Shown here: positions 4,773-52,056 of the stretch, one piece after another
How positions within the stretch are numbered: the first letter of the stretch is position 1
Layout: the number at the start of each line of letters is the position of its first letter
DNA from: Erysipelotrichaceae bacterium
GTDB lineage: Bacteria > Bacillota_I > Bacilli_A > RFN20 > CAG-826
NCBI GenBank assembly: GCA_015059185.1
Contig: SVAY01000003.1
Span: forward strand, 15,251-79,250
Direction of reading: 5' to 3'
DNA length: 64,000 bases
Made by a program: the position numbers and the translations under genes
The notes under the pieces: model-generated
What the model was told of the DNA's origin: nothing
Databases searched by the model: none
Seen by the model: the letters and a program-made list of their open reading frames with translations, nothing else

Positions 4773-6311
4773 TTAAATAGATGCAAAATCTAACTCTTTT
4801 AATAAAGCATAATTAACTTCTGGAAAGTGCATGCCCATAAATCTTGTTGCTAAAGACATATTACTAACTAAAGAAGCCGCTACACTTATACCAGCAGTCG
4901 TAACAAAGTTAACAATAACATTGGTATAATCTTTTAATTTTGTTTTATCGAAACTTACTTTATATTCATCAAGAATCGGTGATAAGAAATTATATAGTCC
5001 ATCTTCAGATAATAATTTCATTAATTCAATAGGCTTTTCTTTGTAAATCTTTTTTACTTCACTTATCACTTTATCAATAGCTTTTTGATCTAAGTTAAAA
5101 TATAGTTCGATTAAATAGGTGATAGCACTTTGATAATTAGCATAATAATGAGCGCGGTCATGCATATCTTTACCATTTTCACCTAAATCGGTTAATAAAA
5201 CTCTTAAAACATACGCTAATAATTCTTGATCATTTTGAAAGTTGCTAGTAGCGGTAAAACTAGGTAAATCTATTCCATAAGTATTTTTAAATATTGCGTC
5301 AATTTCATTTTTATAGATATTAATATCTTTACCTTCTCTAGCAAAAAGATATTCACTAGGTGGAATTGATGCAACAACATCACATTCATTATAAAAATTA
5401 TAGACATGAGTGGCGTTAATAATATTAGATTCAACTATTCCACGAGGCGCTTCAAAAGTATAAGCCATTACTTGATGATCAGGGAAGATGTTATCTTTAA
5501 TCAATTTATGAGCAACTATATTACTCACTCCTCCACCACGGGAATAACCATTAATCCAAAGCTTTATATCATTTTTATTAAGTTGTTCATTATTAATATA
5601 TTTATTTAATTCATCAATAACTTTATTAGCAGAGCTAGTAAATCCTTCATGGTCGCCAGTTTCACCAACTTTAAAATTATTGCTCCATTCAACCCCATAT
5701 TTCCCGCTTCTAATAGCAACCGCTAATATGGTCTTATCATTTATTTTTTTATTAGCAAGAGTGAAAGCAATGTTATCTACTTCTTTAACGTCATAGTTAT
5801 ATGTTTTTATATCGTCAAAAGCTAATTCTTGATAGAAGTTTTTAACGAGTTCTTCTTCCATACTAGTTAAACTAGAGGCATAAGATATAATTGCTAAATC
5901 TTTATCCGCTTTATCACTCATAAATGAGCTAGGTTTATAAGTATAGGTATATTTGATATCTTCTTTAGTGAGATAACTAGCAAATGATCTAGTAATATCC
6001 TTATTATCTCCCCATAAAGCATTAAGGGTGATGTTACCTTTAGAAATATCCCAGGTGCCAGTACTAGGGAAGAAAGTATCATTGTTATAAAAACCTAAGA
6101 AATATTTATCTTGATAGACACCTTGAGTCGGAGAAGAAAAATTATACTCTTCTTTATCTGCTAGATAATAAGTCTTAGCTTCACTACCATCATTATAATT
6201 AATAGTGACCATACTCTTATCACTGATAGAAGAGCTAGAATTTGAATCATTAGAACAAGCTGCTAATGAGATAGATGAAATAGTTAAAAGGAATAATGCT
6301 ATTTTTTTCAT
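4773..6311 (-). CDS. Lipoprotein with a class-3 lipase (Lipase_3-like alpha/beta hydrolase) domain
   Basis: Signal peptide plus lipobox (LLTISSISLAAC). The Lipase_3 pattern is GDHEGF...KLWINGYSRGGGVSNIVAHKL...AYTFEAPRG, with nucleophile motif G-Y-S-R-G. It is a paralog of the 9358..10815 gene. Confidence 0.6.
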   Translation of the reverse strand: MKKIALFLLTISSISLAACSNDSNSSSSISDKSMVTINYNDGSEAKTYYLADKEEYNFSSPTQGVYQDKYFLGFYNNDTFFPSTGTWDISKGNITLNALWGDNKDITRSFASYLTKEDIKYTYTYKPSSFMSDKADKDLAIISYASSLTSMEEELVKNFYQELAFDDIKTYNYDVKEVDNIAFTLANKKINDKTILAVAIRSGKYGVEWSNNFKVGETGDHEGFTSSANKVIDELNKYINNEQLNKNDIKLWINGYSRGGGVSNIVAHKLIKDNIFPDHQVMAYTFEAPRGIVESNIINATHVYNFYNECDVVASIPPSEYLFAREGKDINIYKNEIDAIFKNTYGIDLPSFTATSNFQNDQELLAYVLRVLLTDLGENGKDMHDRAHYYANYQSAITYLIELYFNLDQKAIDKVISEVKKIYKEKPIELMKLLSEDGLYNFLSPILDEYKVSFDKTKLKDYTNVIVNFVTTAGISVAASLVSNMSLATRFMGMHFPEVNYALLKELDFASI

Positions 6312-6590: not shown

Positions 6591-7901
6591 ATGATTAAAA
6601 GAGATAAATACCTTAATGAGCTAATTGACTCAATGAATTATAAAATGCCAAAAGTAATAACCGGAATAAGAAGATGTGGAAAATCATTTTTATTGAAGGA
6701 AATATTTTTTGAGTATTTAGTAAACGAAAGAAAAGTTAGTGCCGAGAATATTTTGATAATTGAATTAGATGATATTAATAATGTGCAATATCGTAATCCA
6801 ATTAAATTGTCAAATTATATAAAAGAAAATATTAAAAATAAGAACACATATTATGTATTTATTGATGAGATTCAACTGGTAACCTCGATAATAAATCCTG
6901 AATTTACAAATGGAGAAACTATAATTGCAAAAGAAGACGATAAAAATATTATATCTTTTGTTGATGTAGTATTAGGCATTTCACGAATAAAAAACGTCGA
7001 TTTATATGTGACCGGTAGCAATTCAAAACTTTTATCAAAAGACATTGTTACTGAATTTAGGGATAAAGCAAGAAATATTCATTTGCAGCCATTATCATTT
7101 GAAGAATTTTATGCATACTATGGCGGCGATCAATATGCTGCTTTTTATGAATATTTAGTTCATGGCGGAATGCCAATGGCAGTTCTTGAACAAGATTTAG
7201 CTAGGAAAGAAAACTATTTAAAAGATTTATTCAATACAACATACTTAAAAGATATAATTGAACATAATAAGTTTAGAAAAATTGAAACTCTTGATGAACT
7301 TTGCAATGTGTTAAGCTTTGCAACAGGTCAATTTTTAAACACCCAAAAATTAGCTAATATAATTGAAAGTAGAAAGAAAGAAAAAATAGATAAATCAACG
7401 ATTGATAATTATTTGAACGCATTTATAGACGCATATATTGTTGAAGAAGTGAATAGATATGATATTAAAGGTAATTCTTCAATCGGTGCATTAAGAAAAT
7501 ATTATTTTTCAGATACTGGTTTAAGGAATGCAAGATTAGATTTTACTTCTCTTGATTTAGGACAGCTAATAGAAACTGTTGTGTATAATGAATTGATATA
7601 TCACGGATACAATGTTATGGTTGGTTCATTTAATCAATTTGAAAAGAATAAAAACAACGAAAGTGTTGTAAAAAAATACGAAGTTGATTTTTATGCTACC
7701 AAAGGTATAGAAACTGTTTACATACAAGTGGCTGAAAATATAGATGATGCCAAAACTAAACAAAGAGAATTAAGGCCGTTTCATTTGATAAGAGACGCAA
7801 ATAAGAAAATAGTTTTAGTTAATCGTCCAATAAAAGCAATGAAATTAGAAAATGGCATTGTTTTATATGGAATCGTAGATTTTATAATGAATTTAAAATA
7901 A
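6591..7901 (+). CDS. COG1373-type ATPase (AAA_14 N-terminal ATPase plus DUF4143 C-terminal domain)
   Basis: The P-loop-like motif ITGIRRCGKSFLLKE, a length of 436 aa and the overall architecture are typical of the widespread archaeal-ATPase-like COG1373 family. Confidence 0.6.
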   Translation: MIKRDKYLNELIDSMNYKMPKVITGIRRCGKSFLLKEIFFEYLVNERKVSAENILIIELDDINNVQYRNPIKLSNYIKENIKNKNTYYVFIDEIQLVTSIINPEFTNGETIIAKEDDKNIISFVDVVLGISRIKNVDLYVTGSNSKLLSKDIVTEFRDKARNIHLQPLSFEEFYAYYGGDQYAAFYEYLVHGGMPMAVLEQDLARKENYLKDLFNTTYLKDIIEHNKFRKIETLDELCNVLSFATGQFLNTQKLANIIESRKKEKIDKSTIDNYLNAFIDAYIVEEVNRYDIKGNSSIGALRKYYFSDTGLRNARLDFTSLDLGQLIETVVYNELIYHGYNVMVGSFNQFEKNKNNESVVKKYEVDFYATKGIETVYIQVAENIDDAKTKQRELRPFHLIRDANKKIVLVNRPIKAMKLENGIVLYGIVDFIMNLK

Positions 7902-7941: not shown

Positions 7942-7977
7942 GTTTAAAAAACTGCCTAGATTTTACTCTAGACAGTT
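7942..7977 (-). terminator. Rho-independent terminator ending the giant-lipoprotein operon.
   Basis: On the minus strand the hairpin AACTGTCTAGA-GTAAAA-TCTAGGCAGTT is followed by TTTTTTAAAC. Confidence 0.55.
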
Positions 7978-8032
7978 ATCGTTCATATGTTGTTCGCTCG
8001 TTAATCCAATTTCTATTTAAAGCGAATGATAT

Positions 8033-8728
8033 TTATTCTTTTGTATCTTCTTCTACTTCAGGTTCAACTACTTCTTCTTGTTTTTCTTCCTCTTTAACCT
8101 CTTCCTCCACTGGAGCTGAAGCTTCGTTTTTAGGAGCACCGATAGCTAAAGCAGCTGGGATGAATAACATTGAAGCGCAGGTGAATAAAGGAATCAAAGC
8201 GTTGGTCCAGCCATATTCATTCGCTGCCATCACAATACCAAAGATCCAATATAATAATCCGGCAGGTAAAATACCTAAGAAAACGTAATGTGAAACTTTT
8301 TCTAATCCTTTAAAGCTGAATGCATTGATTAACACAACAAGGACTAAGTAGGCAGCAACCACTAAATCAAAGACTAATCTAAAAATCCAGAATGCGATGT
8401 AGACGCCAGGTGCATCGCCTAACACTGAAATGCCCCATGAGTCACCGACTAAACCATTCGCTACTGTTAAGACTAAGAATGAAATAAAGGATGCAAATAA
8501 TAATCTAATGCTCTTTTTAAAATAGCCAAACATTAATCCTGTTAGGATTAAGCCATAAAATACTAAATAAAAGAGATAGTGAAGGAATTCACTTCCATCA
8601 TTTGTAATACCACCAACGAAAGTGAAAAAGATTGATGCGGCAAAAGCGGCAAATCCGACAATCGCGAAGATGTGTTTTGCTTTGACAGCAATAAAATCAT
8701 AAATGTTGTCGAAAAAATTATTTCTCAT
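8033..8728 (-). CDS. Polytopic membrane protein with an acidic C-terminal tail (hypothetical)
   Basis: Multiple hydrophobic helices and a C-terminal EEEVKEEEKQEEVVEPEVEED tail. It is the last gene of the giant-lipoprotein operon. Confidence 0.45.
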   Translation of the reverse strand: MRNNFFDNIYDFIAVKAKHIFAIVGFAAFAASIFFTFVGGITNDGSEFLHYLFYLVFYGLILTGLMFGYFKKSIRLLFASFISFLVLTVANGLVGDSWGISVLGDAPGVYIAFWIFRLVFDLVVAAYLVLVVLINAFSFKGLEKVSHYVFLGILPAGLLYWIFGIVMAANEYGWTNALIPLFTCASMLFIPAALAIGAPKNEASAPVEEEVKEEEKQEEVVEPEVEEDTKE

Positions 8729-8804
8729 ATTTCCCCTCCAGAAATAAAATACTTATTAAACTTATGATAGCAAATTGCTTTTTATTAAAAAAGACAAGAA
8801 TGTA

Positions 8805-8830
8805 AAAAAGTGGCATTTGACGTGCCACTT
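8805..8830 (-). terminator. Internal, probably partial, intrinsic terminator between the two membrane-protein genes.
   Basis: On the minus strand the hairpin AAGTGGCACGTCAAATGCCACTT is followed by TTTTTTAC. Confidence 0.45.
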
Positions 8831-8849
8831 ATTATAAACAAGATGATTA

Positions 8850-9341
8850 TTAATCTTTAATAATGCCAGATTCACTGACAAACATCACTAATCCGCCAAT
8901 TAATGAGAAATAAGCGGTGAGATAGGCTCCAATTCCTAAATAGTGACCAGCATATGCTGTATTTTGATATGGAGCAGCAATATCAACAGAAGCGAGGCAG
9001 AGGAATAAATTGATAATGCCACAAATGACAAATAATCCTCCGACTAACATCTTGAGTCCGCCTTTACCTTCTTTTGGCTCAGCCTTAAGTCCTTTAATCT
9101 TTAAGATTAAAGCAATCACACCATAAACTAGTCCAGCTACCACAAAGATAAGAGGGAATAATGTTCCTAAGTTTTGTGGGAATCCATCAAAGTTAAGAGC
9201 GAGTTGCCAACCTAAATAATCTGCGTTACCAGTATAGCCAACTCTTACTAAGACAAAAGGTAATAAGAATCCTACTCCTGCTCCAATTAATAGAGCAATG
9301 CCAACTGCGTTAACAATAATTTTTGCTTTTTTCCTATTCAT
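8850..9341 (-). CDS. Small polytopic membrane protein (hypothetical)
   Basis: 163 aa with four to five hydrophobic segments. Confidence 0.45.
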   Translation of the reverse strand: MNRKKAKIIVNAVGIALLIGAGVGFLLPFVLVRVGYTGNADYLGWQLALNFDGFPQNLGTLFPLIFVVAGLVYGVIALILKIKGLKAEPKEGKGGLKMLVGGLFVICGIINLFLCLASVDIAAPYQNTAYAGHYLGIGAYLTAYFSLIGGLVMFVSESGIIKD

Positions 9342-9357
9342 AAATATCTTCCTCCCA

Positions 9358-10815
9358 TTATGCTTCAGGATTATATTCTAGTGCTCTAAGAAGCACATAG
9401 CTTGATTCGTGCCAGTGGAAATATAAGGCTCTTTGAATATTGCTTAATGCACCCGCTAAAGACATTACATCTCCAAAGTCTAAATGCATCAATACATTAT
9501 AAAATGTATTACATGTAGTCTTTAAGTCTTCTTCATCGAATTCATAACTAACAAATTTGAGGTATGGTTGCGCGATTTCATATAAGCCACCTTCACTCAC
9601 CACTTTACTCGCTAGTTTAAGCATTTGAGCTGGTGTATCCATCCATCTCTTTTGGAAATCTTCCATAATATAGAATAAAGCGTATTGATCAATAGAGAAG
9701 AAGAGTTCAGTCATAAATCTTGCAGCGGTTTGTACGTGCATGACGTAATGTTCTCTATCTTGAATACCAAATGTTGGGTCATCAGCGGCTAAAATACGGG
9801 AAACAAACACTTGCATAAACTCAGTTTCATTCTTATATTTCTTTGAATCCTTGAAGGCTGGGACTGTATCAATCCAGCACTTCGCTGTTTTATGTTTTTG
9901 ATCATCAGTTAACTGGTCATAAGGGATATCGTTACCACTACTATCCTTAGGATAAGTTTCCGCTGGATAAAGTTCATACATATAATCAGCAAATAATTTA
10001 TCAAAGTCATCTCGTAAGATATCTATGTCTGTTCCAGAACGATATAAACCATATTCTTTTGGTGGGACATTAACAACAACGTCACCACTATTAGAAAGGT
10101 TCCAGATGTTCTTATAATCGTATCTTACGTTTTCTTCACTAAAACAGGCTGGAGCTTCAAATGTATAACAATACATATTTTCTTGCGTGAAGCCAAAGCT
10201 ATTATCATTTAATAACTTAGTGGCAAACATATTGGCAAGCGCTCCACCACGAGAGAATCCGTTAATCCATAATTTAACTTTCTTATTGGCGTAATTTTTC
10301 GCCATATAATCATTAAATTCGACTATCGCGTTATTGGCGGAATATTCAAACCCTTCGTGATTACCTTCTTTACCTAAGGTAACGTTAGATACCCATTCTT
10401 GTGTATAGTCATAACTTCTAAATGATAAGGCAACAACTGTGAAGTCATCAACTTCCCTATCAGCGATATAAAAGCCATAAGTATCTGTTCCACATCCCTT
10501 ATCATATACTTCAGTATAGTAGTGATGATTAAAGTGAATAGCGTTATAGAACTTCTTAGCTTCTTTCTTTTGGCCACTATTAGCAGTCGCGACAAATGAC
10601 ATAAGGGCAAAGTCTTTATTAAACTTTGTTGGAGATTCCCTAAAGTAATCATTTGAATAAGTGAAATGCGCCTTAGTGTCCATATTGTTACCGAAAATGA
10701 AATAATAATCGGTATCAATTTCTTCTGTATCAGGAGCTGGGCCACTGCTACAAGAGGTAGCAATGAGAGGTACCATTAATAATGGTAATAATAGTTTTTT
10801 AAGCTGCATAACCAA
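9358..10815 (-). CDS. Lipoprotein with a class-3 lipase (Lipase_3-like) domain; paralog of 4773..6311.
   Basis: Signal peptide plus lipobox (PLIATSC). The pattern GNHEGF...KLWINGFSRGGALANMFATKL...CYTFEAPACF gives nucleophile motif G-F-S-R-G. Its start overlaps the stop of the giant lipoprotein gene by 17 nt. Confidence 0.6.
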   Translation of the reverse strand: MVMQLKKLLLPLLMVPLIATSCSSGPAPDTEEIDTDYYFIFGNNMDTKAHFTYSNDYFRESPTKFNKDFALMSFVATANSGQKKEAKKFYNAIHFNHHYYTEVYDKGCGTDTYGFYIADREVDDFTVVALSFRSYDYTQEWVSNVTLGKEGNHEGFEYSANNAIVEFNDYMAKNYANKKVKLWINGFSRGGALANMFATKLLNDNSFGFTQENMYCYTFEAPACFSEENVRYDYKNIWNLSNSGDVVVNVPPKEYGLYRSGTDIDILRDDFDKLFADYMYELYPAETYPKDSSGNDIPYDQLTDDQKHKTAKCWIDTVPAFKDSKKYKNETEFMQVFVSRILAADDPTFGIQDREHYVMHVQTAARFMTELFFSIDQYALFYIMEDFQKRWMDTPAQMLKLASKVVSEGGLYEIAQPYLKFVSYEFDEEDLKTTCNTFYNVLMHLDFGDVMSLAGALSNIQRALYFHWHESSYVLLRALEYNPEA

Positions 10816-13800
10816 GTTCTCCTAAAACATATTGAGCGTAAGTTCTTGAATCATACTTATTATCCATATAAGTATTTAACTCATTGATGTGTGCATCTCT
10901 CAATTCATCCGTAATAGTTGTTGGATCAATATTGATATCAACATCAGCATATAAATTACCTGTAACAATCATGTTAACAGAAGCAGTAATACTGGCTTTA
11001 AGGTATTGTAAGAAGGCTTTTGTCTCTTCACTTTCAGTGTGTTTGCCTCCGAATAAAGCAATATCACAATTGCTAAGCATTGTATTATTGAGTAAGTTAT
11101 CTAGGCCAACATTAGCGGTCCAAATACCATATGGGTTTTCATCTGCTGTCCATGTATCAATGTATGGGTCAGTGAATCCAGTTCCAGGTTCATAATAATT
11201 ATAGGACTTTAAGACTTTTGAATATGTTGGTTGATAATCGCTTTCAACATGGTAATTCCACATATTAATGAAATCATCATTTTCTGGAGCGCTTGTTAAC
11301 ATGTTAAGTGTGTCATTATTTAACGCACCTAAACATGTCCACTTGGAATCATCAAATGTTCCTGAGGTATCTTCGATACACTTATAAAGCTTATAATCCA
11401 CTTCTACAAGATCATCGACGACATATGAAGCCGAAGAGTTATATTTAGGATACATTCTTTGGGCATATACATCAGATATACCATCACCATTATTTCTTGG
11501 TTTAATACCAAGACCAAAGTTTAGTAGATAATGGGATAAATTATCCATAAATTGATCCATGGTCAGTGAAATTCTTCTTGTATGACCATTAGATGTTGAT
11601 TCTATAACAACAAATGAATCACGCTTTAAAGCTCCGTCACGATAAATATAATTATCATCTTTATCTTTTACTGGATTACCATAAGAATCGGTAACTAGAA
11701 CTCGTTCATATACTGGAGCTCCATATTGGTCACGCTGTGCTAAATTAGTAACATAAACAGAGAAATTACGTGAGCTACTGGTCCAGTCTAAGTCGCCTCT
11801 ATTTTCACTTACATAATAAGCGACTCTACCAATTAGAGGTACATCAAACCCAATGCTAATTGATGGTATATTAGTCAAATCGAATTTAGCATAATAATCT
11901 TCAACATTGTATGTTTCGTCATTCACTATATGCATGTAAGAACTAATATTAACTGGATCATAATCTGCAAATTGGATATGTCTTTCACTACCCAAGAAAT
12001 CGAAAGATATATCACCTCTAATATTAATGGTGCCGTTAAATGCATAATCGTCATATAAAACAGTGTTGATTAAATGGTCTGCCAATGCAGAAATACTAGT
12101 GAAGTTATAGGCACTAGCTCTATATGTACTAGGAATCTTTTCAATTGATGTATTGGTTTGAGTTAACGATAAGCTGATTGGTTGACCAGTATATCTACCA
12201 CTGACCTTAAGTTCAGCAATATATTTCTTATAAATTGGATTATCATCCTCATCTACGCCAACTTCTTTATCAGCTGTTCTCATAATAACTGTGATTGGTT
12301 CTAAGATATCGTCATCATGTAACTTAAAGAGGTTCTCATTAAGGACAATACGATATGTTTGAGTACCTGCATCATATGTAAAGCTATCAATAACTTTACT
12401 ACGTAATAAGACTTCCATATCGCCACCTAAGATTTGCATTAATAAAGTCTTAGGACCTTCAGTCTTAAAGATTTCCATAATGTTAGCGATTCTACTATCC
12501 TCGCTATTAGCGACTCTAGTAAAGACATCGACTAAATCAAAGACACTACTGAGTTTGAGTGCGCCATACATCTTATCAGCGGCGGCTGGTTCTGCACCAT
12601 GTCCAGTTGGCTTTTCTTCATCAGAATCATAGATAGAATCAACATCACCATAAGAAACATAGATATGACTATTTTCTGCCGCTTCTTCCACTCTTGCTTG
12701 GGCTTCAGGATCATCTGATTGATAATCTTCCATACTAATGAGTTGAGCGTTTACATCAGCCTGGACATAATGGGTTTTACGGCCAGTTGTAATTGCTGCT
12801 TTGATTGATCCTTCATTTGTTTTTGGATCTAAGACACCGTTATCTTTATTAAGTTCGAAGTCGATATCGGCATCGATCATTAATTCATCATAAACACCAC
12901 TTAAGCGATATTTGACGGTCTTTTGGTCACTACTGAAGAGTGATAAGACATCATCTAAGATATCGTTGACATAGTCAAGTGGGACATATGTTTCTGGATT
13001 AACTGGGACGATTGGATCTTGATAATCGTCTTGTTCGATAGCGACACTACCACTTAAGTAATAGCCTAAGGCATAGAAGTTATTAACATATAAGTGATGG
13101 ATACCTTTACTACCGATATCTAATCCGATAGAGACGGTAGCACCTGAATCCTTAACACCAATTAAACTACCCTTAAATGTTAAGACTAATTCTCTTTCGT
13201 TATTTTCTAATGTTCTAACGTTGCTAGAAACATAATATCTAAATAAATCTAAATAATTACCACTACTTAAGATGTTATTAAGTGGGGTTTGATTACCTGT
13301 TGATACATTACCGCTAGGAATCACTGCGTCCACAAGTTTCTTAAATGTTGGGTTTTCCGCAGAATAGTGATTAATAACTTTAGTTAAGTCATCTAACTTG
13401 GTTAAGTCGTATCTCACTCTAAAGTCTTCATGAATATTATCGTGAGCGTAATAGAAATATGCTGTCTTATTGACTAAACGGATATCAAATAATGAATTGA
13501 ATAAATACTCTTCACTATTATCTTTCATTTTAGAAACACTACCTTTAGCTTCAAATAAGGCATTCTTGAAGTCGCTTAAGTCGTGTAAATCTACATCAAG
13601 TGTACCATTAAATACTGCTAATGGAGCAACATCGGTACGACGTGAGACATCAACATCAAAGACTAAGTGAGCTTTCTTATTTTCCATTAAGTCTTCGATT
13701 TGATCGATAACAGCCTTTTGATAATCTTTACCTAAATCTTTAACATATCCAGTTAAGACATTGATATCATCTGCACCAATCCAGCCACCTGCTGGGATTT

Positions 13801-16800
13801 CTTGAGCTTTGAAATCGGTTACTTCAGTTGGAACTGGAGAAGTTTCATCTAATAATTCAAAGTTAATGGCGACTGGTTTAGTTTCCACTGTCGCACCACC
13901 AACGATAGAAACAATCTCGTGATTATCATTAAAGGTAATAGTTAATGTTGGGTTATTATCTAAGCCGAGTTCACTGCCATTGACCTCAATCACTAATTTC
14001 TCAGGTTCAGTTGCAGTTTTTTCGTAATGCTTAATACCATTTTCAAGGAAGTAATCCTTATATAATAAGGAAACAATATCAAATCCTTCACTTGTAGTTT
14101 GTTCAGTTTCATCTTTCTTAGCAAACATATCGGTTAAGTTACCAATGAACTTAGAAAGATATTCGTTGAGATAACTATCTTCACCACTAATCATTTCTTG
14201 AATGTCACTGGTAATCTTTTGAATTGTCGCTTCTTCAATACTTAGTCTCACCGCATCTTCTACTTCACCATTTTTGGTATACATGATGTAGCAGGTTGAG
14301 CCGTTATTACTGACATTAATGACATGGATATCACGGTGATTTTCTTCGTCTTCTTGACCTTGGAATTTGATATAAACATCATAGACACCGTTTTCTTTAG
14401 AGAGATCTAGATTCACATAAGCATCAAGAATCATGTCGTTATATGTGGAATTAGTGATTTCAAAGATTACTTTCTTTTCACTAATAATGTTCTTGATTTG
14501 ATTGATAACGTATTTAACATTTGCGGCGTTGATATAGTCGCTGGTATTGATAGTACTAGCTTCACTATAATCGCGTAAGGCTACTTCAAAGTCGAGCTTA
14601 TAATCGCCATATTCAATGCCTTTAACACCGATAGAGTTAATACCGTTCTCATCGATATTAAGAATCAAATCAAATGTGGTTGTGCTTTCTGCGTTAAGTA
14701 AGCCATTTGATAATGTTAAGGTAATGACGTTACCATCGTTTTCACTGACCATTACACCCTTGAAGGCTTTGATGATCTCTTGATATTCACCATTATTTAA
14801 GTATTCAAGGATTGGTAAAGAAATCGCGTTCACTGTTTCACTTACGTTAGCCGCATCTCTACCAAGTAATTCATTTAATGAATTAATGATTTCTTGTACT
14901 TCAGAACGCTTACACGCTAACTTAATGGCTTTACCTAACTTCGCGGATAATAGCTTTTCGCCAGTTGGATTACCCTCACCATCTTTAATATCTTGATAAC
15001 CAATTAATAATTCAAGATCACGATCAGTAATAACATGGGTGGTTTCATCTTCTTCTTGAGAGAGGATATGGCCACTGACCACCATATTAAGTTGATCAAG
15101 TAAATCTTCTTGATCGTTAAGTTTATCTCTTAATCCGATATCAGCTTTACCGTTACTGACACTGAAGACAGTATCATATGTATCAGAAGCATTCTTCTTA
15201 GAGAGGGTGCCACTGAAATCGAGTCCGATTTGTTTAGTTTCATAAATATTGGTTAATTGTTCGATGAACTTGAAGGTACCATTGGTAGACTTGCTAGCCA
15301 TATACTTTGCAATTGTTGATAAATTATCAACACGTTCAAAGTCGCTAGTATCAGTAATGTATCTTCTAGAGCCGTCTGCCCCTTTCATCATAATCTTTGC
15401 GTCAACTTCAAAGTCACCATATTGGGTGGCAATTCTCACACTATCAATCTTGTCATTCTTAAGATGGATTTCTAAGAGTAAGTTCTTATTTAAACCTAAT
15501 AAATCTTTATCAAGTTCTATTGTATAGTCGTTAGCATCTTCAATTTCTAATCTAAGGATTGATTCATCTCTAAGGATAGCAAACATATCGCCATGCATAA
15601 CTTTGGCTAAAGTATCACTTGTCGCGTTAGCAATAATGGTGCCAATAGGACCGAGATTTTCTCCACCTTCTTCACTTCCTTGATTGAAGGCTTCCATAAT
15701 TGAATTATAAATAGAAAGGATAGAATCATAACTTGCAACAGCCTTAACTGGTGAAGTTGGAGCTACATCCTTATTATCTTGATAGACGTAATAAGCATAT
15801 AAGTCATTCTTCTTATTCGCGTCTTCATATGTATCAAGTTTAAGGGTATGAATATGATCATTGAAGTCTTTGACTTCCACATCAAGTCCACCCTTTATTG
15901 TGTTCTTTAAATTAAGGGAAGCGTTACCGTTAAGAGTGAGGTTCTTGTTATTTGAAAGATTCTTTACCTTCACGTCTAAACCTAAATCAAATTCCATCGC
16001 ACGATAATACACGCCGACATCTTTAATGATTTCGTCTAGATTATCTAAAACGCTATATTGGTCTTTGTTAATACGTTTGATACCAGTAAATTCGGTGAAG
16101 GTAAATGTTCCATCAACGATATAAGTATTGATATCAACGTGAGACATAGTTAATGAAGTAATGGTTTCATCGTTAAGGTTAAGTCTAATATAACCATGAC
16201 CACTACCACCAAGGAGGTAGTTATCAACATCAACTTCAATATAATTGGTAGTAAAATTAATTGTTCCGTATTTAGTGATATCACGATATTTAGCATCGGT
16301 AATGATATCTAAGATTGGATATTCTTTACCACTTGCCCCAAAGATGAGGTCAAAGATATTGATACCAAAGATATCGCTATCACCTAAGACTTCCCATAAA
16401 TCACTTAATCCCGCATTGGTGTAAGCAAGTTTATATGGATCTCTACCATTATTGAGGTAGTAATCTAAATAGATACATTCATCACGATATTGACCATTAT
16501 ATTTAGTCTTATAATCATCATGGCCTTCTGTTGCTGGATCATTGATATAAATATCACCTTCAAGGTTTACCACTGTATCTTTTAAGTCCATTTGTAGGAC
16601 ACCTGTGGTATAGCCTAAATAGACAATATTATCTGGAGTAGCGCTTTCATAATGAGACAATTCTAACTTATAGTTAGTCGCCACTTTTTCTTCATCTAAG
16701 ATGTTCCTAATCTTTCTTAATGCACCAAAGTATGTTGAAACATCAATATATGGTTTAGCTTCTGTTTCAGGAGAAGTAATTGGATTAGTTAAACTATCTA

Positions 16801-17512
16801 AGATGTTAGTATTCATCTTCACTCCAATGGTGAAGTCTTGATATTTGATGCCAGTGATTTCAATTGAGGTCAGTTTATAATCTGTATCACTAGTAAGAGT
16901 TAAATCAGGTTGATCGCCTGTTGTATGCGCGACGTATTCATAATATGTTCCTTTATCGGTGAAGGTCATATTAGCGACATTGGTGATGATTTCTGCAATG
17001 CCACTTGTGGTTAAGTTAGTGACGTTCTTTTCTTCTTCACTACTCTCTTCCCCTTCGCCAAGGACGAGGTCTAATAGTTCACCAAAGTCATCAGTCTTAA
17101 GTTTGAGGTTACGGTTACTAATGCTTAAGTAGGCAGTATCATCTAAATATGTCATATCGAAGTCAACGACAGGGAGTTTTTCTTTTTCAGTCATTGAAGC
17201 ATCGTTCATATCAAGTTTAAATGAAGCATCAAATGCAAGATTTTCTAAATTTTCCATTGAGGCTGTGGCTTTACCATAGACACGGTAATTATCAGCCTTT
17301 TCTTTATTAGGATCTTTATAGCTGACATTGATATCTAAATCAGCTTCTAAATATCTTGTGTCAAATAAGGTGTTAACAAGCTTATCTTGACTGCTTTCTT
17401 CAATTGGTTCAAAGGATGGTTGGGTCGGTGTGACACCACACGCCGCCAAAGCAAAACCTCCAAAACCTAGTAACCCTAGTCCACCTAGGAGCCAGAATCG
17501 TGACTTCTTCAT
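10799..17512 (-). CDS. Giant surface lipoprotein of about 2237 aa. It is rich in D, N, T and Y and probably rich in beta-strand, with no domain recognisable by eye.
   Basis: The N-terminus reads MKKSRFWLLGGLGLLGFGGFALAAC (signal peptide plus LAAC lipobox). A GGAGG Shine-Dalgarno sequence lies 8 nt before this ATG, so the longer ORF-track start at 17551 is probably a spurious 5' extension. The open reading frame is uninterrupted for 6.7 kb. Confidence 0.7.
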   Translation of the reverse strand: MKKSRFWLLGGLGLLGFGGFALAACGVTPTQPSFEPIEESSQDKLVNTLFDTRYLEADLDINVSYKDPNKEKADNYRVYGKATASMENLENLAFDASFKLDMNDASMTEKEKLPVVDFDMTYLDDTAYLSISNRNLKLKTDDFGELLDLVLGEGEESSEEEKNVTNLTTSGIAEIITNVANMTFTDKGTYYEYVAHTTGDQPDLTLTSDTDYKLTSIEITGIKYQDFTIGVKMNTNILDSLTNPITSPETEAKPYIDVSTYFGALRKIRNILDEEKVATNYKLELSHYESATPDNIVYLGYTTGVLQMDLKDTVVNLEGDIYINDPATEGHDDYKTKYNGQYRDECIYLDYYLNNGRDPYKLAYTNAGLSDLWEVLGDSDIFGINIFDLIFGASGKEYPILDIITDAKYRDITKYGTINFTTNYIEVDVDNYLLGGSGHGYIRLNLNDETITSLTMSHVDINTYIVDGTFTFTEFTGIKRINKDQYSVLDNLDEIIKDVGVYYRAMEFDLGLDVKVKNLSNNKNLTLNGNASLNLKNTIKGGLDVEVKDFNDHIHTLKLDTYEDANKKNDLYAYYVYQDNKDVAPTSPVKAVASYDSILSIYNSIMEAFNQGSEEGGENLGPIGTIIANATSDTLAKVMHGDMFAILRDESILRLEIEDANDYTIELDKDLLGLNKNLLLEIHLKNDKIDSVRIATQYGDFEVDAKIMMKGADGSRRYITDTSDFERVDNLSTIAKYMASKSTNGTFKFIEQLTNIYETKQIGLDFSGTLSKKNASDTYDTVFSVSNGKADIGLRDKLNDQEDLLDQLNMVVSGHILSQEEDETTHVITDRDLELLIGYQDIKDGEGNPTGEKLLSAKLGKAIKLACKRSEVQEIINSLNELLGRDAANVSETVNAISLPILEYLNNGEYQEIIKAFKGVMVSENDGNVITLTLSNGLLNAESTTTFDLILNIDENGINSIGVKGIEYGDYKLDFEVALRDYSEASTINTSDYINAANVKYVINQIKNIISEKKVIFEITNSTYNDMILDAYVNLDLSKENGVYDVYIKFQGQEDEENHRDIHVINVSNNGSTCYIMYTKNGEVEDAVRLSIEEATIQKITSDIQEMISGEDSYLNEYLSKFIGNLTDMFAKKDETEQTTSEGFDIVSLLYKDYFLENGIKHYEKTATEPEKLVIEVNGSELGLDNNPTLTITFNDNHEIVSIVGGATVETKPVAINFELLDETSPVPTEVTDFKAQEIPAGGWIGADDINVLTGYVKDLGKDYQKAVIDQIEDLMENKKAHLVFDVDVSRRTDVAPLAVFNGTLDVDLHDLSDFKNALFEAKGSVSKMKDNSEEYLFNSLFDIRLVNKTAYFYYAHDNIHEDFRVRYDLTKLDDLTKVINHYSAENPTFKKLVDAVIPSGNVSTGNQTPLNNILSSGNYLDLFRYYVSSNVRTLENNERELVLTFKGSLIGVKDSGATVSIGLDIGSKGIHHLYVNNFYALGYYLSGSVAIEQDDYQDPIVPVNPETYVPLDYVNDILDDVLSLFSSDQKTVKYRLSGVYDELMIDADIDFELNKDNGVLDPKTNEGSIKAAITTGRKTHYVQADVNAQLISMEDYQSDDPEAQARVEEAAENSHIYVSYGDVDSIYDSDEEKPTGHGAEPAAADKMYGALKLSSVFDLVDVFTRVANSEDSRIANIMEIFKTEGPKTLLMQILGGDMEVLLRSKVIDSFTYDAGTQTYRIVLNENLFKLHDDDILEPITVIMRTADKEVGVDEDDNPIYKKYIAELKVSGRYTGQPISLSLTQTNTSIEKIPSTYRASAYNFTSISALADHLINTVLYDDYAFNGTINIRGDISFDFLGSERHIQFADYDPVNISSYMHIVNDETYNVEDYYAKFDLTNIPSISIGFDVPLIGRVAYYVSENRGDLDWTSSSRNFSVYVTNLAQRDQYGAPVYERVLVTDSYGNPVKDKDDNYIYRDGALKRDSFVVIESTSNGHTRRISLTMDQFMDNLSHYLLNFGLGIKPRNNGDGISDVYAQRMYPKYNSSASYVVDDLVEVDYKLYKCIEDTSGTFDDSKWTCLGALNNDTLNMLTSAPENDDFINMWNYHVESDYQPTYSKVLKSYNYYEPGTGFTDPYIDTWTADENPYGIWTANVGLDNLLNNTMLSNCDIALFGGKHTESEETKAFLQYLKASITASVNMIVTGNLYADVDINIDPTTITDELRDAHINELNTYMDNKYDSRTYAQYVLGELGYAA

Positions 17513-17535
17513 ATACATAACCTCCAAGTATATGC

Positions 17536-17570
17536 GCGTAAAAAAAGACAAAAAACTCTCAAAGCGAGAG
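17536..17570 (-). promoter_or_regulatory. Terminator-like hairpin plus U-tract in the 5' leader of the giant lipoprotein gene (candidate attenuator).
   Basis: On the minus strand CTCTCGCTTTGAGAG is followed by TTTTTTGTCTTTTTTT. It lies between TATAAT-like boxes (TTATATAATC / CACTATAATC) and the GGAGG Shine-Dalgarno sequence. Confidence 0.3.
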
Positions 17571-17662
17571 TAATACGATTATAGTGATAAGATTATATAA
17601 TCTCGTCGCATAATTGATTTACTATTGTTTTCGTTTGTTCTTAAATATTCTAACGACTTCTT

Positions 17663-17698
17663 TATATAAATAAAATATAAAAGGGAGTCATCACTCCC
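17663..17698 (-). terminator. Intrinsic terminator after the ispD/tarI-like gene.
   Basis: On the minus strand the hairpin GGGAGTGATGACTCCC, which overlaps the stop codon, is followed by TTTTATATTTTATTT. Confidence 0.5.
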
Positions 17699-18359
17699 TC
17701 ATGTATCTTTCAAAATCGCCAATATTCGTTATTTTGTAATTACTTTCTTCGCCTTCCACTACTACGTATTTGTCTTTTTTAAGTTCTACGAGATTTATGT
17801 CGTCTGTTGGGAAGAAATTCTCGTCATTTATAAACTCTTCATAAAGCGAATAAATATAACCTAATTTAAAGGATTGAGGAGTCTGGGCTAAGAAAGGAAT
17901 GCCATTAATCATATGAGCAGTATCAATTCTTTCTTTTTGAGGATTACCTCTAATCGCAGTAAGTACGGCCTTTGCCTCCATAAGTGCAAAGATGTTTGCT
18001 AAAATAATGATCTCACTGGTATTAGGTCTTACTGCATCTGCAATCAAGACATTATCATCTTTATCATATAAATTAGCGAGATATTTAATTCCTAGGTAGC
18101 TAGAAATAAATCTCTCTTTCCCTCCAGGAATCACGTCTATCACTTTTTTAATGTTATATGTTTTTAGATCCTCTTTAACTTCATCAATATAATCTTTATT
18201 CACCACTAAAAGGATATCAGATATTGAATCGACATTTTGATATTTATTAATCGCATCAATATAGATAGGAATATTATTCTTTTTGATGAATTGTTTAGGT
18301 GTTTCTCCACCAAATCTTTTCCCACTTCCACCTAAAAGAATTAAAGCAATATTTTTCAT
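17691..18359 (-). CDS. IspD/TarI-family sugar-phosphate (or MEP) cytidylyltransferase
   Basis: The N-terminal motif IALILLGGSGKRFGGETPKQF has the form LAGGxGxRxG...PKQy and the product is 222 aa. It overlaps the upstream membrane-protein gene by 4 nt. Confidence 0.55.
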   Translation of the reverse strand: MKNIALILLGGSGKRFGGETPKQFIKKNNIPIYIDAINKYQNVDSISDILLVVNKDYIDEVKEDLKTYNIKKVIDVIPGGKERFISSYLGIKYLANLYDKDDNVLIADAVRPNTSEIIILANIFALMEAKAVLTAIRGNPQKERIDTAHMINGIPFLAQTPQSFKLGYIYSLYEEFINDENFFPTDDINLVELKKDKYVVVEGEESNYKITNIGDFERYMRE

Positions 18360-19000
18360 TTTTGCTTCCTTAAATTCTTAATGGAAATTCCTAAAGAAAT
18401 CAAGTATGTTACACAAAGCATAATTGGTAAAACTAAGGCAATCGCCCAATCTTGACCTCCAAATGTAAATCCATAGAAATCATTCCACACTCCCGAGAGT
18501 ACAAATGATGCGTAGAAAATTCCATATATTGCCATTGGAATAACACCAATAAGAACAAATCTAAACTTATAATGTGGGTGCTTCGTAAAGAAATAAGAAG
18601 CCACGATTAAAATTGGGTTTAATAAATGATAAAAGAACATATCTTCTTTATACATAAGATCAAAGCCAGATCTTGGACCAAGGAATAAAAGCACTGTTAA
18701 AGCGGTTAAAGCTAAACTAGTCGCTGCACTTAAATGGAGGAAACTTAACCAACGAGGTAATGTATATCCTTCCTTTTTAAAATTGATAATAGCAAATACC
18801 ACTAATACCGCTGCAACAAGTGAAGCCCAGACATTACTTAATGTAGTAAAAAATTCTAAGCAGTCATAATGTAATTTCTTCCCATCCATTGGGGAAGCAG
18901 TACCTAAAATAAGCATTCTCCATAAGATAATTTGTCCACTAATAAAAACAAACAAATTTAAAACTAGAGCAATAATTTTAAAGACTTGTTCTTTTTTCAT
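18356..19000 (-). CDS. Polytopic membrane protein (hypothetical), co-transcribed with the cytidylyltransferase.
   Basis: Six to seven hydrophobic helices. The start is placed at MKKEQVF (ATG ending at 19000), because the longer ORF would overlap the divergent + strand gene. Confidence 0.4.
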   Translation of the reverse strand: MKKEQVFKIIALVLNLFVFISGQIILWRMLILGTASPMDGKKLHYDCLEFFTTLSNVWASLVAAVLVVFAIINFKKEGYTLPRWLSFLHLSAATSLALTALTVLLFLGPRSGFDLMYKEDMFFYHLLNPILIVASYFFTKHPHYKFRFVLIGVIPMAIYGIFYASFVLSGVWNDFYGFTFGGQDWAIALVLPIMLCVTYLISLGISIKNLRKQK

Positions 19001-19031
19001 ACTATACTTATTATAAATAAGAGGTAACAAA

Positions 19032-19664
19032 ATGGAAAAGAAGAAAATGGATGACCTAACAAAAGTAAAACTCATTTATAGTGGCGAACTCATCATTATT
19101 GCGATTGTTGCTTTAGTCATTGGTATCCTCCAACTCACAAATGTCTTAACAGTCAAAGAACTATTTAGAAACATCTTTAACTGGGTCACCATCTTTGGCT
19201 CTCCAATTTTAATTATCACTTCTATCTATTCTTTATGTTCAACTAAAAGACGTAAGAAGATATCAATATTTGATAAGATTACTCTTTTCCCACTTGCTAT
19301 CTATATTCTTGTGATTGATATTATCTGTTTTGCTAACTATGGAACACTTGATCAATCCTTCTATCAAACCTATATTCCTATTGCTTTATTATCTTTAGCC
19401 GTTATTTATCTCGTTCAAGGTATATATCACTGGTATCGTCCACTCCCATCTTTACTTGCGGAATTAGAGCAGGAAAGAATTGATAAGATTACTTATAAAG
19501 TATTAGAAAAAAATGAAGATGGTTCAGTTAAAGCCTTACATATCGAATCTAATAAAGAATTTCTATTTAAAGATGCTCATATCATAGAGAATGTTGATGA
19601 ATTATTCTGCTTAGACCAATATCCTAACGCTAAATACGAAGAGATAAAAAATAACGAAGAATAA
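19032..19664 (+). CDS. Membrane protein with four N-terminal TM helices and a cytoplasmic C-terminal domain (hypothetical)
   Basis: An AGAGGT Shine-Dalgarno sequence lies 8 nt upstream of the ATG. The product has hydrophobic N-terminal helices and a charged C-terminus. Confidence 0.45.
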   Translation: MEKKKMDDLTKVKLIYSGELIIIAIVALVIGILQLTNVLTVKELFRNIFNWVTIFGSPILIITSIYSLCSTKRRKKISIFDKITLFPLAIYILVIDIICFANYGTLDQSFYQTYIPIALLSLAVIYLVQGIYHWYRPLPSLLAELEQERIDKITYKVLEKNEDGSVKALHIESNKEFLFKDAHIIENVDELFCLDQYPNAKYEEIKNNEE

Positions 19665-19666
19665 TC

Positions 19667-19713
19667 GTTTTTGTATACTACAGTAAACACTTTTATCACT
19701 TTTAGATATTATT
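19667..19713. repeat. Left copy of an approximately 47-bp direct repeat (TTTTTGTATACTACAGTAAACACTTTTATCACTTTTAGATATTATTT) flanking the DUF3990/DUF3791-like cassette.
   Basis: It is about 90% identical to the copy at 20990-21036. It overlaps the stop codon of the 19709..20332 gene. Confidence 0.7.
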
Positions 19714-38701: not shown

Positions 38702-39584
38702 AATTCATTATTTTTCTATTTTTAATTGCTTCAAATTTAAGTGATTCATCTCTTTTGCTTTTATCCGTTTCTTCATAAGCTTTTTTAAGATATTTTTTTC
38801 TACTAGATATTAACCCTATTAGGTAGTTCTTTAATCTAGTCTCTATATGATATTCATCTACCCATTTAAGTGACTTCGCTACGGTTTCGTTTTTTAACAC
38901 ATATTGCGGTCCAATATTTGCAAACTTCAAGGCCTTTTTAACTTCATTAATGTCGCTCACTTCATCAAAAAAAGCATCCATAATATCAAAATTATATGAA
39001 TCCGCAATTTCCCCTTTTAGCACATCATATTGAGCAAATTTCTTGTCAAAATATTCTCTAATAAAAACACGGTCTCTTTCTTCTTTAATCTTATAACGAT
39101 TGTAACCGATAAAAAGCACCCAGTCTTCTTCTCCTAAAACCTTATCATCGTAAAAAGAATAAATCTTAGTTTTCAAAATATCTTTTTCATTAAAACGATA
39201 TATAACAGGATGGGGATATGTTATCACATAACTAATAGCAGTTTTAAAAGTTTCACTAAGATAAAAACCATTTCCAAAGTCTATTGGCTCATTAATATTT
39301 CTAGTTGTTGATATATCTCCGATAATCCCTCCCACTTTTGATCCGTGAAAAAGGTAACCATCATTTCCTTCTATATCAAACAAATCATATATATCAAGAT
39401 TGTTATCATTTATTAAAGAAATAATCTTATTAAATACTATTGGTGAAGGATTATTATGACGATTAATATAATTATTAATTTGTCTAGGTTCAACACCCAA
39501 AAAATCTGCTAAAGTGGCCGATGAATAATTCAATACATTCATTAATCTTTTGATTACAAAAGAAATATTTAATTCTGTTTTCAT
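38691..39584 (-). CDS. Fusion of an XRE-type HTH to a DUF3990-like (predicted ART fold) domain
   Basis: The N-terminal HTH is SSATLADFLGVEPRQINNYINRHNNPS. It is followed by LFHGSKVGG...IDFGNGFYLSETFKTA...DWVLFIGYNRY, paralogous to the 20332..20974 product. Confidence 0.5.
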   Translation of the reverse strand: MKTELNISFVIKRLMNVLNYSSATLADFLGVEPRQINNYINRHNNPSPIVFNKIISLINDNNLDIYDLFDIEGNDGYLFHGSKVGGIIGDISTTRNINEPIDFGNGFYLSETFKTAISYVITYPHPVIYRFNEKDILKTKIYSFYDDKVLGEEDWVLFIGYNRYKIKEERDRVFIREYFDKKFAQYDVLKGEIADSYNFDIMDAFFDEVSDINEVKKALKFANIGPQYVLKNETVAKSLKWVDEYHIETRLKNYLIGLISSRKKYLKKAYEETDKSKRDESLKFEAIKNRKIMNYGR

Positions 39585-39794: not shown

Positions 39795-41435
39795 CTATCT
39801 ATATACTTCATCCTTAAATGCACTATTTTTATGTGAAAATGATAATCCAATTAACAATATCCTTTTAGAATTAATACGTAGCGCATCTGAATAGTATTTA
39901 TGTTCTTTAATTTGGTTTAAAGCTTTAGAAGCGGATTTTTCTAAATCACTTATTGAAGGTCTGTTTTTTAAGTATTTAAGTTCTAAAATAATTGAATAAT
40001 CGTTATTTGATATCGATCTAATCACTATGTCGCACCTTCCTTGGCCTTCTTCAATTTCACTGCTGACAAGAGCGTCGTCCATCAAAACAGATCCCAAGGT
40101 GACAATCATAATTTGATATGCTTTTTCAGAATTTAAATCTAAATATGAAAGCCTATTTTGAATATAAAAAGCAAGATTGGAAACAAATTCTTTAGTATTA
40201 AATGATATTAACGATTCCTTTATCTTTTTTAGAATCATAAAATTATCTTTATTCACTAATGTTTCCATGATTTCTTTGTTAAAGGCAATTTTAATTTCCT
40301 CATTCACTATCCTTACTGTATAGTAATTGCTTGGAAAATTAGGATGTATAGATAAATAACCACTAAACGCTAATAAAGAATATAGATTGATATTGTTATC
40401 AACGAAATCATAACTTATATTTTCATTGATTGTTGTATTAACATTTTCTCCATTAGTTAAAGATACTAAATCACTATTTACGTCACCACTTAATAGCTTC
40501 ACGGTCTCATGTAACAATTTATATGATCCTGTATTCGTCCAATAAGCCTTATATACAAATATATTTGATATAAAATTTAAAATTGACCAGGGATTATATA
40601 CTTCTTTATTTTGGAAAAAATATCCACCATACCACCTCTTCACTTCGTTATAATCACCATTGAAGTTTGAATATCTCAATAGTTTTTCAACCTCATCATC
40701 AGTAAAGCCGAAAAACTCATCTTTATTAGATAAGATATTATTAACCATCAAATTGTTTAAATCTGAAAAGATAGAAGAATGTGATACTTGGGTTATTCCA
40801 GTTACGATAGCTTTATATAGATAAGGGTTGCTTTTAATCGCATTACCTAAAAAGTCTTTCATAAGGTCTCTAGCATCATCAAAATAGCCATTCACATATG
40901 CGGTTTCTAAAGGTGTATCGTATTCATCAATTAAAATAATAGTCTTGACATTATTTTTCTTATATAACTTTTTAGTAAGGTAATATAAAGATTCTTTTAA
41001 TTCATTATTAGTACATTTACGATTTATGACATTATTTTCAAAATCATTTTCAGGGTTAATTAAATCACTATAAATATCAGATATCTTAAACTTCAATAAT
41101 TCAATATAATCAGCATAACTACGTCCGTTTATACCCTTTAAGTTAAGATGTATAACGTTATATTTATTTATATATTCAGCATATCTATGATCTTTATTAA
41201 TAATATTAGTGTCTTTAAATAAGGTTAATGAATCTTCATTGATATCAAAAAAATATTTACATAAAGAAAGCATTAATGATTTTCCAAATCTACGTGGACG
41301 GGTAAAGAGAAATGTCGCGGATTCAGGGGAATTAATTATATCTTCTAAAAACAATGTTTTATCCACATAATAACAATCTTTTTTTACTGTTTTGAAATCA
41401 TCAACGCCTATTGGCAAATACAAATTTGGAATCAT
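39795..41435 (-). CDS. AAA-ATPase-like (PF09820-type) N-terminal domain fused to a PD-(D/E)xK nuclease-like (PDDEXK_9/DUF1703) C-terminal domain
   Basis: The N-terminus LPIGVDDFKTVKKDCYYVDKT...TRPRRFGKSL is the hallmark of the predicted AAA-ATPase family. The C-terminus CDIVIRSISNNDYSIILELKY has the (D/E)-x-K pattern. The start is set at MIPNLYLPIG, which has an AGAGGT Shine-Dalgarno sequence 7 nt upstream. The ORF-track start at 41498 lies inside the upstream tandem repeats. Confidence 0.6.
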   Translation of the reverse strand: MIPNLYLPIGVDDFKTVKKDCYYVDKTLFLEDIINSPESATFLFTRPRRFGKSLMLSLCKYFFDINEDSLTLFKDTNIINKDHRYAEYINKYNVIHLNLKGINGRSYADYIELLKFKISDIYSDLINPENDFENNVINRKCTNNELKESLYYLTKKLYKKNNVKTIILIDEYDTPLETAYVNGYFDDARDLMKDFLGNAIKSNPYLYKAIVTGITQVSHSSIFSDLNNLMVNNILSNKDEFFGFTDDEVEKLLRYSNFNGDYNEVKRWYGGYFFQNKEVYNPWSILNFISNIFVYKAYWTNTGSYKLLHETVKLLSGDVNSDLVSLTNGENVNTTINENISYDFVDNNINLYSLLAFSGYLSIHPNFPSNYYTVRIVNEEIKIAFNKEIMETLVNKDNFMILKKIKESLISFNTKEFVSNLAFYIQNRLSYLDLNSEKAYQIMIVTLGSVLMDDALVSSEIEEGQGRCDIVIRSISNNDYSIILELKYLKNRPSISDLEKSASKALNQIKEHKYYSDALRINSKRILLIGLSFSHKNSAFKDEVYR

Positions 41436-41469
41436 ACTTAATACCTCTACAATCATAGAATAATATGCT

Positions 41470-43976: not shown

Positions 43977-43985
43977 ATCCTTAAC

Positions 43986-46957: not shown

Positions 46958-46961
46958 CTAA

Positions 46962-52010: not shown

Positions 52011-52056
52011 ACATAATAAAATACCATTAAATGATGGTATTTGTTAATAGATAAAT

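Follow-up and report, generated by a model that had tools for sequence, protein, structure and literature searches.

We analysed a 64-kb stretch of a metagenome-assembled genome (MAG) that is labelled Erysipelotrichaceae bacterium in NCBI and represents an uncultured member of the Bacilli of gut/rumen type; this whole stretch is called the window below. The open reading frame (ORF) calls place on its minus strand, at 7.9-17.6 kb, the genes for a giant predicted lipoprotein (the giant), a class-3 lipase lipoprotein (lipase A) and two membrane proteins (TM163 and TM231), in that order. An earlier reading made from the DNA letters (the sequence-only reading) had described these genes as one operon, with a second lipase lipoprotein elsewhere, and all the ORFs that it had claimed are present where it placed them. 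The features of the locus are the following, with lengths in amino acids (aa).

17555..17603, minus strand: putative 5' control region of the giant gene (sequence; conserved across 7 loci)
10799..17512, minus strand: giant lipoprotein gene (ORF and intact homologs)
9358..10809, minus strand: lipase A gene, 483 aa (Pfam Lipase_3)
8850..9341, minus strand: TM163, membrane protein of 163 aa with four transmembrane segments (4-TM; homologs in every type-A locus, described below)
8808..8830, minus strand: terminator-like hairpin with a T-run, 3' of TM163 (terminator scan and sequence)
8033..8728, minus strand: TM231, polytopic membrane protein of 231 aa with an acidic C-terminal tail (homologs in some loci)
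7946..7975, minus strand: hairpin with a 9-bp stem and T6, 3' of TM231 (read from sequence)
6591..7901, plus strand: AAA_14/DUF4143 ATPase gene (Pfam)
4773..6311, minus strand: lipase B, paralogous class-3 lipase lipoprotein of 512 aa (Pfam and alignment)

The ATG of lipase A at 10809 overlaps the TAA of the giant (10799-10801) by 11 nt, confirming the overlap of stop and start that had been claimed, and this ATG, with AGGAG ahead of it, is probably the true start of lipase A; TM163 starts 16 nt past lipase A. The terminator expected after TM231 is present as the hairpin at 7946..7975. The four-gene operon of the sequence-only reading stands as a conserved, translationally coupled unit, but the hairpin at 8808..8830 between TM163 and TM231 favours a three-gene core plus TM231, and therefore the core operon probably consists of the giant, lipase A and TM163, with TM231 partly separate. 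The plus-strand ATPase gene between TM231 and lipase B is a recent insertion, because L006, the relative with 87% identity, has no such gene there. The regional GC is 35.2%, not the 30% given before, and TGA serves as a stop codon in the window, so that the standard bacterial code holds.

The giant has 2237 aa from its start MKKSRF, with a mature mass of ~248 kDa, and is very acidic by its composition (pI 4.4); NCBI lists it as an identical hypothetical protein, locus tag E7175_01315. Seven further protein clusters, 36-87% identical to the giant, are all full-length and all carry a lipobox, whose Cys is invariant in 8/8 homologs (the window protein included). The orthologs are intact and not fragmented, so the giant ORF is genuine as the earlier reading had expected, and we rejected a spurious long ORF. 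Five of the homologs are long (2150-2237 aa) and three are short (1310-1349 aa); in the alignment, residues ~1018-1780 of the window giant have no counterpart in the short forms.

A BLAST of the giant against itself detected no repeats, which surfaced only through profiles. In hhalign comparisons, module 2 matched module 4 with 91% probability and module 3 matched module 4 with 92%, in register, and a hidden Markov model (HMM) of module 4 alone matches giant residues 1250-1533 at 4.8e-12. We then tiled the giant with a module HMM built of 286 instances from distant relatives only, with the close clade left out. It detected seven modules, at independent E-values (iE) of 6e-15 to 4e-28, spanning residues 27-246, 234-503, 476-749, 737-1004, 985-1265, 1247-1544 and 1498-1854, while the same HMM gave no match on 50 shuffled giant sequences. 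By these profile matches the giant is a chain of seven tandem, mutually homologous modules of ~250 residues. Its parts are listed here; AF2 marks modules covered by an AlphaFold2 (AF2) model.

17438..17512, minus strand: signal peptide and lipobox, residues 1-25 (...F-A-L-A-A-C25; sequence)
16793..17437, minus strand: module 1, ~residues 26-240, predicted LolA/LprG-like (HMM iE 8e-20; AF2)
16058..16792, minus strand: module 2, ~residues 241-485 (HMM iE 3e-24; hhalign; AF2)
15293..16057, minus strand: module 3, ~residues 486-740 (HMM iE 1e-22; hhalign; AF2)
14513..15292, minus strand: module 4, ~residues 741-1000 (HMM iE 9e-26; AF2)
13733..14512, minus strand: module 5, ~residues 1001-1260 (HMM iE 6e-15)
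12923..13732, minus strand: module 6, ~residues 1261-1530 (HMM iE 2e-25)
11948..12922, minus strand: module 7, ~residues 1531-1855 (HMM iE 4e-28)
10802..11947, minus strand: C-terminal domain, ~residues 1856-2237 (alignments)
11318..11470, minus strand: insert, residues ~2015-2065, with Cys2045 and Cys2060 (alignment)

Modules 5-7 are missing from the short forms, which have four modules, and a 4042-aa relative has ~13. The C-terminal domain of ~380 aa is conserved in long, short and distant members (L007, L018, L019), with the near-invariant motifs LLNT, R-x-F-x-IY, YYLLNYGLGIK and YSxLLKxY. The insert of ~45-50 aa within it is unique to the window giant and is missing from 7/7 homologs, including the 87%-identical one; it resembles a CBM5/12 carbohydrate-binding module by eye, with a Pfam match that is not significant. 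Genuine CBM_5_12 modules (E 4.7e-11) occur in the 4042-aa relative (P0009, in locus L018), at a different site of the chain.

No domain was detected in the giant with Pfam or NCBIfam, or in the 8 homologs with Pfam at E <= 10, and PDB sequence profile searches with both halves of the giant gave no match. In the AF2 model of residues 26-1017, a unit made of a helix, six strands, a helical linker and five strands occurs four times in succession. In the Foldseek search of this four-module model against PDB, LolA of six or more species was top with probability 1.00 (E 2.6e-5 to 1e-3, target-normalised template modelling score ~0.5), followed by LprF and other 'lipoprotein-sorting' proteins. The fold-match table for the module model gave LprG (11.4), LprF (11.0), an Ependymin-type carotenoid-binding protein (10.7), LppX (10.6), LolA of several species (10.0-10.6), EPDR1 (10.0), LolB (9.5), RseB (8.9) and VioE (8.6). 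The modules are predicted to form the unclosed antiparallel half-barrel of ~11 strands plus helices that defines the LolA/LprG fold. The absence of a recognisable domain, as described earlier, holds for curated sequence families but not at the level of predicted fold.

LolA, LolB, LprG, LppX, RseB and similar proteins have an unclosed beta-barrel sheltering acyl chains or hydrophobic ligands. In LolA and LolB the ligands are the acyl chains of lipoproteins and in LprG triacylated glycolipids; phthiocerol dimycocerosates are handled by LppX, and RseB binds lipopolysaccharide. To our knowledge, the LolA/LprG/LppX fold shelters acyl chains or hydrophobic ligands in all characterised members. A role of the giant in lipid handling gains support, because its modules are predicted to have this lipid-carrier fold; adhesin-type folds were not supported. 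The beta-solenoid or Ig-like repeats that had been suggested appear neither in the AF2 secondary structure nor in the fold matches, and we rejected an adhesin built of such repeats.

Searches for the wider family differed in their reach. Word-indexed homology searches with the giant or the 8-sequence alignment returned the same 8 clusters only, and the N-terminal alignment scanned against GTDB genomes and against JGI metagenomes gave no match. Exhaustive searching with a profile of the 990 N-terminal residues detected 91 relatives, 24 of them below 1e-30, most of 950-1450 aa and some of up to 4042 aa; many match in several stretches, indicating modularity. The iterated module HMM converged at 364 instances in 102 proteins. 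The named members are annotated as 'hypothetical protein' in Bacilli, Erysipelotrichaceae or Clostridia MAGs. This is an unnamed protein family of at least ~100 proteins, so far from MAGs alone.

The lipobox clade gave eight retrievable loci, all of the kind seen in the window (type A: the window, L001-L006 and L018). The giant, the Lipase_3 lipoprotein and the TM163 homolog are adjacent in that order in 8/8, with a spacing between the cassette genes of -11 to +19 nt. The usual neighbourhood is between an IspD-like gene and Flavin_Reduct-RimP-NusA; the L018 cassette precedes rpsL-rpsG-fusA-tuf, and its trio is intact though the flanking genes differ. In the window the IspD-like cytidylyltransferase gene (Pfam IspD, 1.2e-23), overlapped by the gene for a 239-aa membrane protein, lies directly upstream of the giant, within 17691..19075 (minus strand). 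The IspD-like gene has the same position in L002-L006, preceded there by a gene of ~220 aa (236 aa in L003); in L018 neither it nor the membrane protein gene is at this position.

TM231 and lipase B are accessory, present in some loci only. TM231, for which no Pfam family was detected, has homologs in L006, L003 and L001 (a fragment), and in L006 lipase B adjoins TM231. TM163 homologs, 36-55% identical, occur in every type-A locus and share a conserved A-L-N-F-D-G loop, which would face outward by the positive-inside rule. The only Pfam match of TM163 is a weak one to DUF4064; TM163 showed no significant similarity to the DUF4064 protein encoded at 52057..52473 in the window. Between the TM163 and TM231 homologs, L001 (9073..13767) and L003 (10024..14634) encode a second giant lipoprotein, of 1564 and 1536 aa respectively, whose Cys-rich repeats contain C-x-x-C-like motifs in pairs and which has no homolog in the window. 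We rejected these as relatives of the window giant; they are unrelated Cys-rich repeat lipoproteins.

The Pfam Lipase_3 check proposed earlier gave 41.7 bits for lipase A and 38.4 bits for lipase B, above the cut-off of 22. The second lipase lipoprotein was confirmed as a 31% identical paralog, with the nucleophile motif GYSRGG in place of the GFSRGG of lipase A. Both are class-3 lipases by family and have putative lipolytic activity. The lipobox, for which the criterion was a signal peptide ending in [LVI][ASTVI][GAS]C, was read as LAAC25 in the giant, ATSC20 in lipase A and LAAC19 in lipase B, and is present in all lipase homologs, so that the three proteins are predicted to be surface-anchored lipoproteins.

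The lipase family profile matches Rhizomucor miehei lipase in PDB (E 1.6e-5), and in the alignment HxGF, the GxSxG Ser and Asp203 coincide. The nucleophile aligns to G-H-S144-L-G-G, and the invariant Asp, in N-x-x-D-V-V-x-x-x-P-P, aligns to Asp203, with the triad numbering of R. miehei lipase taken by us as established knowledge. The residues are Ser186 (10252-10254), Asp243 (10081-10083) and His465 (9415-9417) in lipase A and Ser257, Asp311 and His495 in lipase B; Ser, Asp and the C-terminal His are invariant across 9 aligned lipase sequences. The catalytic triad proposed for checking is supported for Ser and Asp, while the His is conserved and unaligned; it lies in the motif H-[WF]-x-E-x-x-Y-x-L, ~20 residues from the C-terminus. 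In comparison with R. miehei-type class-3 lipases, lipases A and B have HxGF, GxSxG and the acid Asp in common, and differ by the lipoprotein anchor, an insertion of ~190 residues and Arg instead of Leu after the nucleophile. This insertion, between the Asp and the putative His, is apparently helical. Lipase B has an extra N-terminal domain of ~85 aa, in which residues ~33-97 (6020..6215, minus strand; ...YFLGFYNNDTFFPSTGTWDISKGNITLNALW) resemble a Listeria-Bacteroides repeat by eye, where Pfam reported none.

We suggest, with a probability of about one half, that the locus is a cell-surface cassette for harvesting external lipids. The lipid binding, the direction of transport, the substrate and the role of TM163 are what we infer, as follows. 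The giant and lipase A would be tethered on the outer face of the cytoplasmic membrane, where lipase A would hydrolyse external glycerolipids (dietary, host or microbial) and free acyl chains. The seven lipid-carrier-fold modules would capture the freed acyl chains or lipids and hold them or relay them toward the membrane, with TM163 as the probable membrane-side partner; by our estimate, the extended giant chain could reach ~30 nm. The acyl chains would then enter a FakA/DegV/PlsC pathway for incorporation.

Genes for such a pathway are detected by Pfam in a lipid-use cluster at 43032..52473 on the minus strand of the window. It contains two Hydrolase_4 alpha/beta hydrolases, a FakA-like kinase (Dak2 and FakA-like_C), an MFS_2 transporter, DegV (a fatty-acid-binding protein), two PlsC-type acyltransferases and an AMP-binding acyl-activating enzyme, and is closed by the small DUF4064 membrane protein at 52057..52473. 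Such a gene set is what one would expect where phospholipids are made with fatty acids of external origin. Among the ~45 window ORFs scanned, none was detected as a peptidoglycan or sortase-substrate gene, and 64 kb says little as to the wall-less cell suggested earlier; for the host-membrane attachment suggested in the same reading no evidence emerged.

Several observations weigh against the harvesting of external lipids. The Fak cluster is 26 kb from the cassette, without physical linkage. The AF2 model of residues 26-1017 is of moderate confidence (predicted local distance difference test score, pLDDT, 60.6; predicted template modelling score 0.32; 8-sequence alignment), and Pfam LolA, LolB, LppX_LprAFG and MucB_RseB gave no match at E <= 10 among the 8 homologs; because of both, the modules are to be called 'LolA/LprG-like by predicted fold' and not members of those curated families. 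For the second half of the giant the AF2 pLDDT was 48.6 and Foldseek gave no match at E <= 0.001. The putative catalytic His is a conservation-only assignment, past the ~190-aa insertion and outside the solved-structure alignments. The distant members of the family have another cassette (type B: L007, 5054..15452; L019, 6915..14295; L020, 6073..9964; L021, 2008..10468), without lipase or TM163, in which one or two module proteins come after a conserved, unrelated single-pass protein of ~310-355 aa. Full-length lipase relatives in other rumen MAGs (cattle and goat, among others) stand alone. The lipase-less type B and the stand-alone lipases indicate therefore that the lipase link belongs to one clade and not to the whole family. 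At its N-terminus the second module protein of L007 (1344 aa) resembles type IV pilins (N_methyl), as do the family members P0033 and P0038.

In a more specific and rather doubtful form of the proposal, the giant is a 'bucket-brigade' conduit, in which lipase-freed acyl chains would be passed from module to module to the 4-TM receptor. We regard as equally tentative that this conduit, with a lipid-tail anchor and an array of tens of nm, would be a monoderm analogue, made with another fold, of bridge-like lipid-transfer proteins and of P116, the lipid-extracting surface protein discussed below. That the type-B relatives, the pilin-anchored ones included, form a wider conduit class in uncultured Bacilli is likewise a speculative extension, more probably wrong than right.

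Other functions of the cassette have to be considered. It is unlikely, in our estimate, that its module array carries glycolipids, lipoteichoic-acid-like polymers or lipoproteins of the producer itself outward, from membrane to outer envelope, in the manner of LprG/LppX, with the lipase as an enzyme of remodelling or deacylation. In mycobacteria, LprG/LppX are described as working together with a membrane protein to deliver lipids to the outer layers (PMC6519032, PMC4169494). An IspD-like gene and a putative membrane protein gene, found directly upstream of the giant in 7/8 type-A loci (the window among them, L018 not), may have an envelope-polymer role, and the type-B locus L007 lies near a glycosyltransferase gene and an LPG_synthase_TM gene. 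However, a terminator-like hairpin at 17681..17700 parts the IspD-like gene from the giant, and the L018 cassette has left the IspD neighbourhood and kept both lipase and TM163. Class-3 lipases are catabolic enzymes by family, and no MFS or ABC transporter lies inside the cassette, which also argues against outward handling. A structural coat or adhesin, with the modules as spacers without lipid cargo and the lipase independent of them, appears quite improbable to us: the fold matches are lipid carriers and not Ig, beta-solenoid or cadherin folds, and the strict coupling to the lipase and the membrane protein in 8 loci would have no explanation, although a module number that varies (4, 7, ~13) as in surface adhesins, the very acidic giant and the pilin-like N-termini in some distant members would agree with such a coat. 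Its modules would position the C-terminal domain, in some members CBM5/12, on particles or host surfaces; the CBM_5_12 modules of P0009 and the CBM-like insert of the window giant would fit this variant, to which we give the same low odds.

An antagonistic function, in which the lipase, presented by the giant, would damage neighbour or host membranes and the 4-TM protein would confer protection on the producing cell, is very improbable. Lipases with small protective membrane proteins or lipoproteins occur in contact-dependent antagonism, and in type-A loci the small membrane protein is always 3' of the lipase. The lipase is, however, anchored to the producer by its lipobox and not secreted, and no secretion-system genes were seen in any locus, in scans that did not take in the PADLOC and PHROGs libraries.

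The harvesting cassette can be compared with known lipid-handling systems. LolA, LolB and LppX-LprG-LprF consist of one domain of ~200 aa, whereas the giant fuses seven modules (4 to ~13 in its relatives), with the same predicted fold and no Pfam-level match. Unlike these carriers, the cassette is coupled to a lipase and is without LolCDE or an MFS partner; a test for a Lol pathway detected no ABC transporter adjacent in any type-A locus. Its host is a member of a low-GC lineage of Bacilli and, in contrast to the setting of Lol, has no outer membrane as a destination for sorting. A pairing of carrier lipoprotein and membrane protein is known from the two-gene lprG-Rv1410 operon (PMC6519032).

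P116 of Mycoplasma pneumoniae is a large surface-anchored protein that extracts lipids for a lipid-dependent bacterium (PMC10023570, PMC12487902), which is the same job as proposed for the giant; the P116 fold is 'previously unseen' and unrelated, and P116 has no partner lipase. We rejected homology to P116: there was no PDB sequence match, and the best 50-60 fold matches listed did not include P116. The likeness to AsmA/TamB/YhdP and VPS13 is in concept only, as long repeated-beta proteins able to pass lipids, since the units of the giant are predicted to be discrete half-barrels with helical linkers and the bridge-like proteins have a continuous beta-groove. Membership in AsmA/TamB was rejected (no Pfam match; TamAB Foldseek probability 0.18; discrete modules).

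Fatty-acid and lipid acquisition by reduced-genome, lipid-dependent gut and rumen Bacilli is poorly understood, and P116 is the only mechanistically characterised surface lipid extractor found in our literature search. We found no account of tandem LolA-like giants or of this cassette in the literature, in a search that was not exhaustive. What is new here is the polymerised module architecture, its coupling to a lipase and the lineage of the host; both the fold and the broad class of function were known before. The cassette is a testable candidate in which an acyl-freeing enzyme is paired with a giant of predicted lipid-carrier-fold modules. If lipid harvesting is its function, it would represent a new architecture for bacterial lipid transport and show that the LolA/LprG fold can serve as a polymerisable unit outside a diderm envelope; it would also be relevant to lipolysis in the rumen.

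The DNA upstream of the giant may contain an operator plus a leader element. It has a perfect 14-bp palindrome, AGATTATATAATCT, at 17590-17603, a TATAAT -10 box and, by the terminator scan, a short hairpin with a U-run at 17555-17571; the ribosome-binding site GGAGG follows, 9 nt before the start. The DNA of this region is kept in 7 loci (the window and L001-L006), though their giants are only 36-87% identical. The leader hairpin is found in most loci, with base changes on both arms between loci, and its folding energies are no better than those of shuffles. The palindrome occurs once in the window, and a search for its regulon there gave matches at chance level only.

Further genes of the window were detected away from the cassette. 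A DUF3990 protein is paired with an HTH_26 protein at 19709..20979 (minus strand), and a second DUF3990 protein is encoded at 38691..39584 (minus strand), beside an AAA-ATPase_like/PDDEXK_9 gene at 39795..41498; these DUF3990-bearing groups are possibly mobile or defence-related modules. The large ORFs at 26914..29175 and 30320..32215 have no Pfam family. Further surface-type proteins are encoded at 25277..26584, 29406..30317 and 52536..53444 (minus strand), one of which carries a lipobox and collagen triple-helix repeats and the other two Listeria-Bacteroides (Flg_new) repeats.

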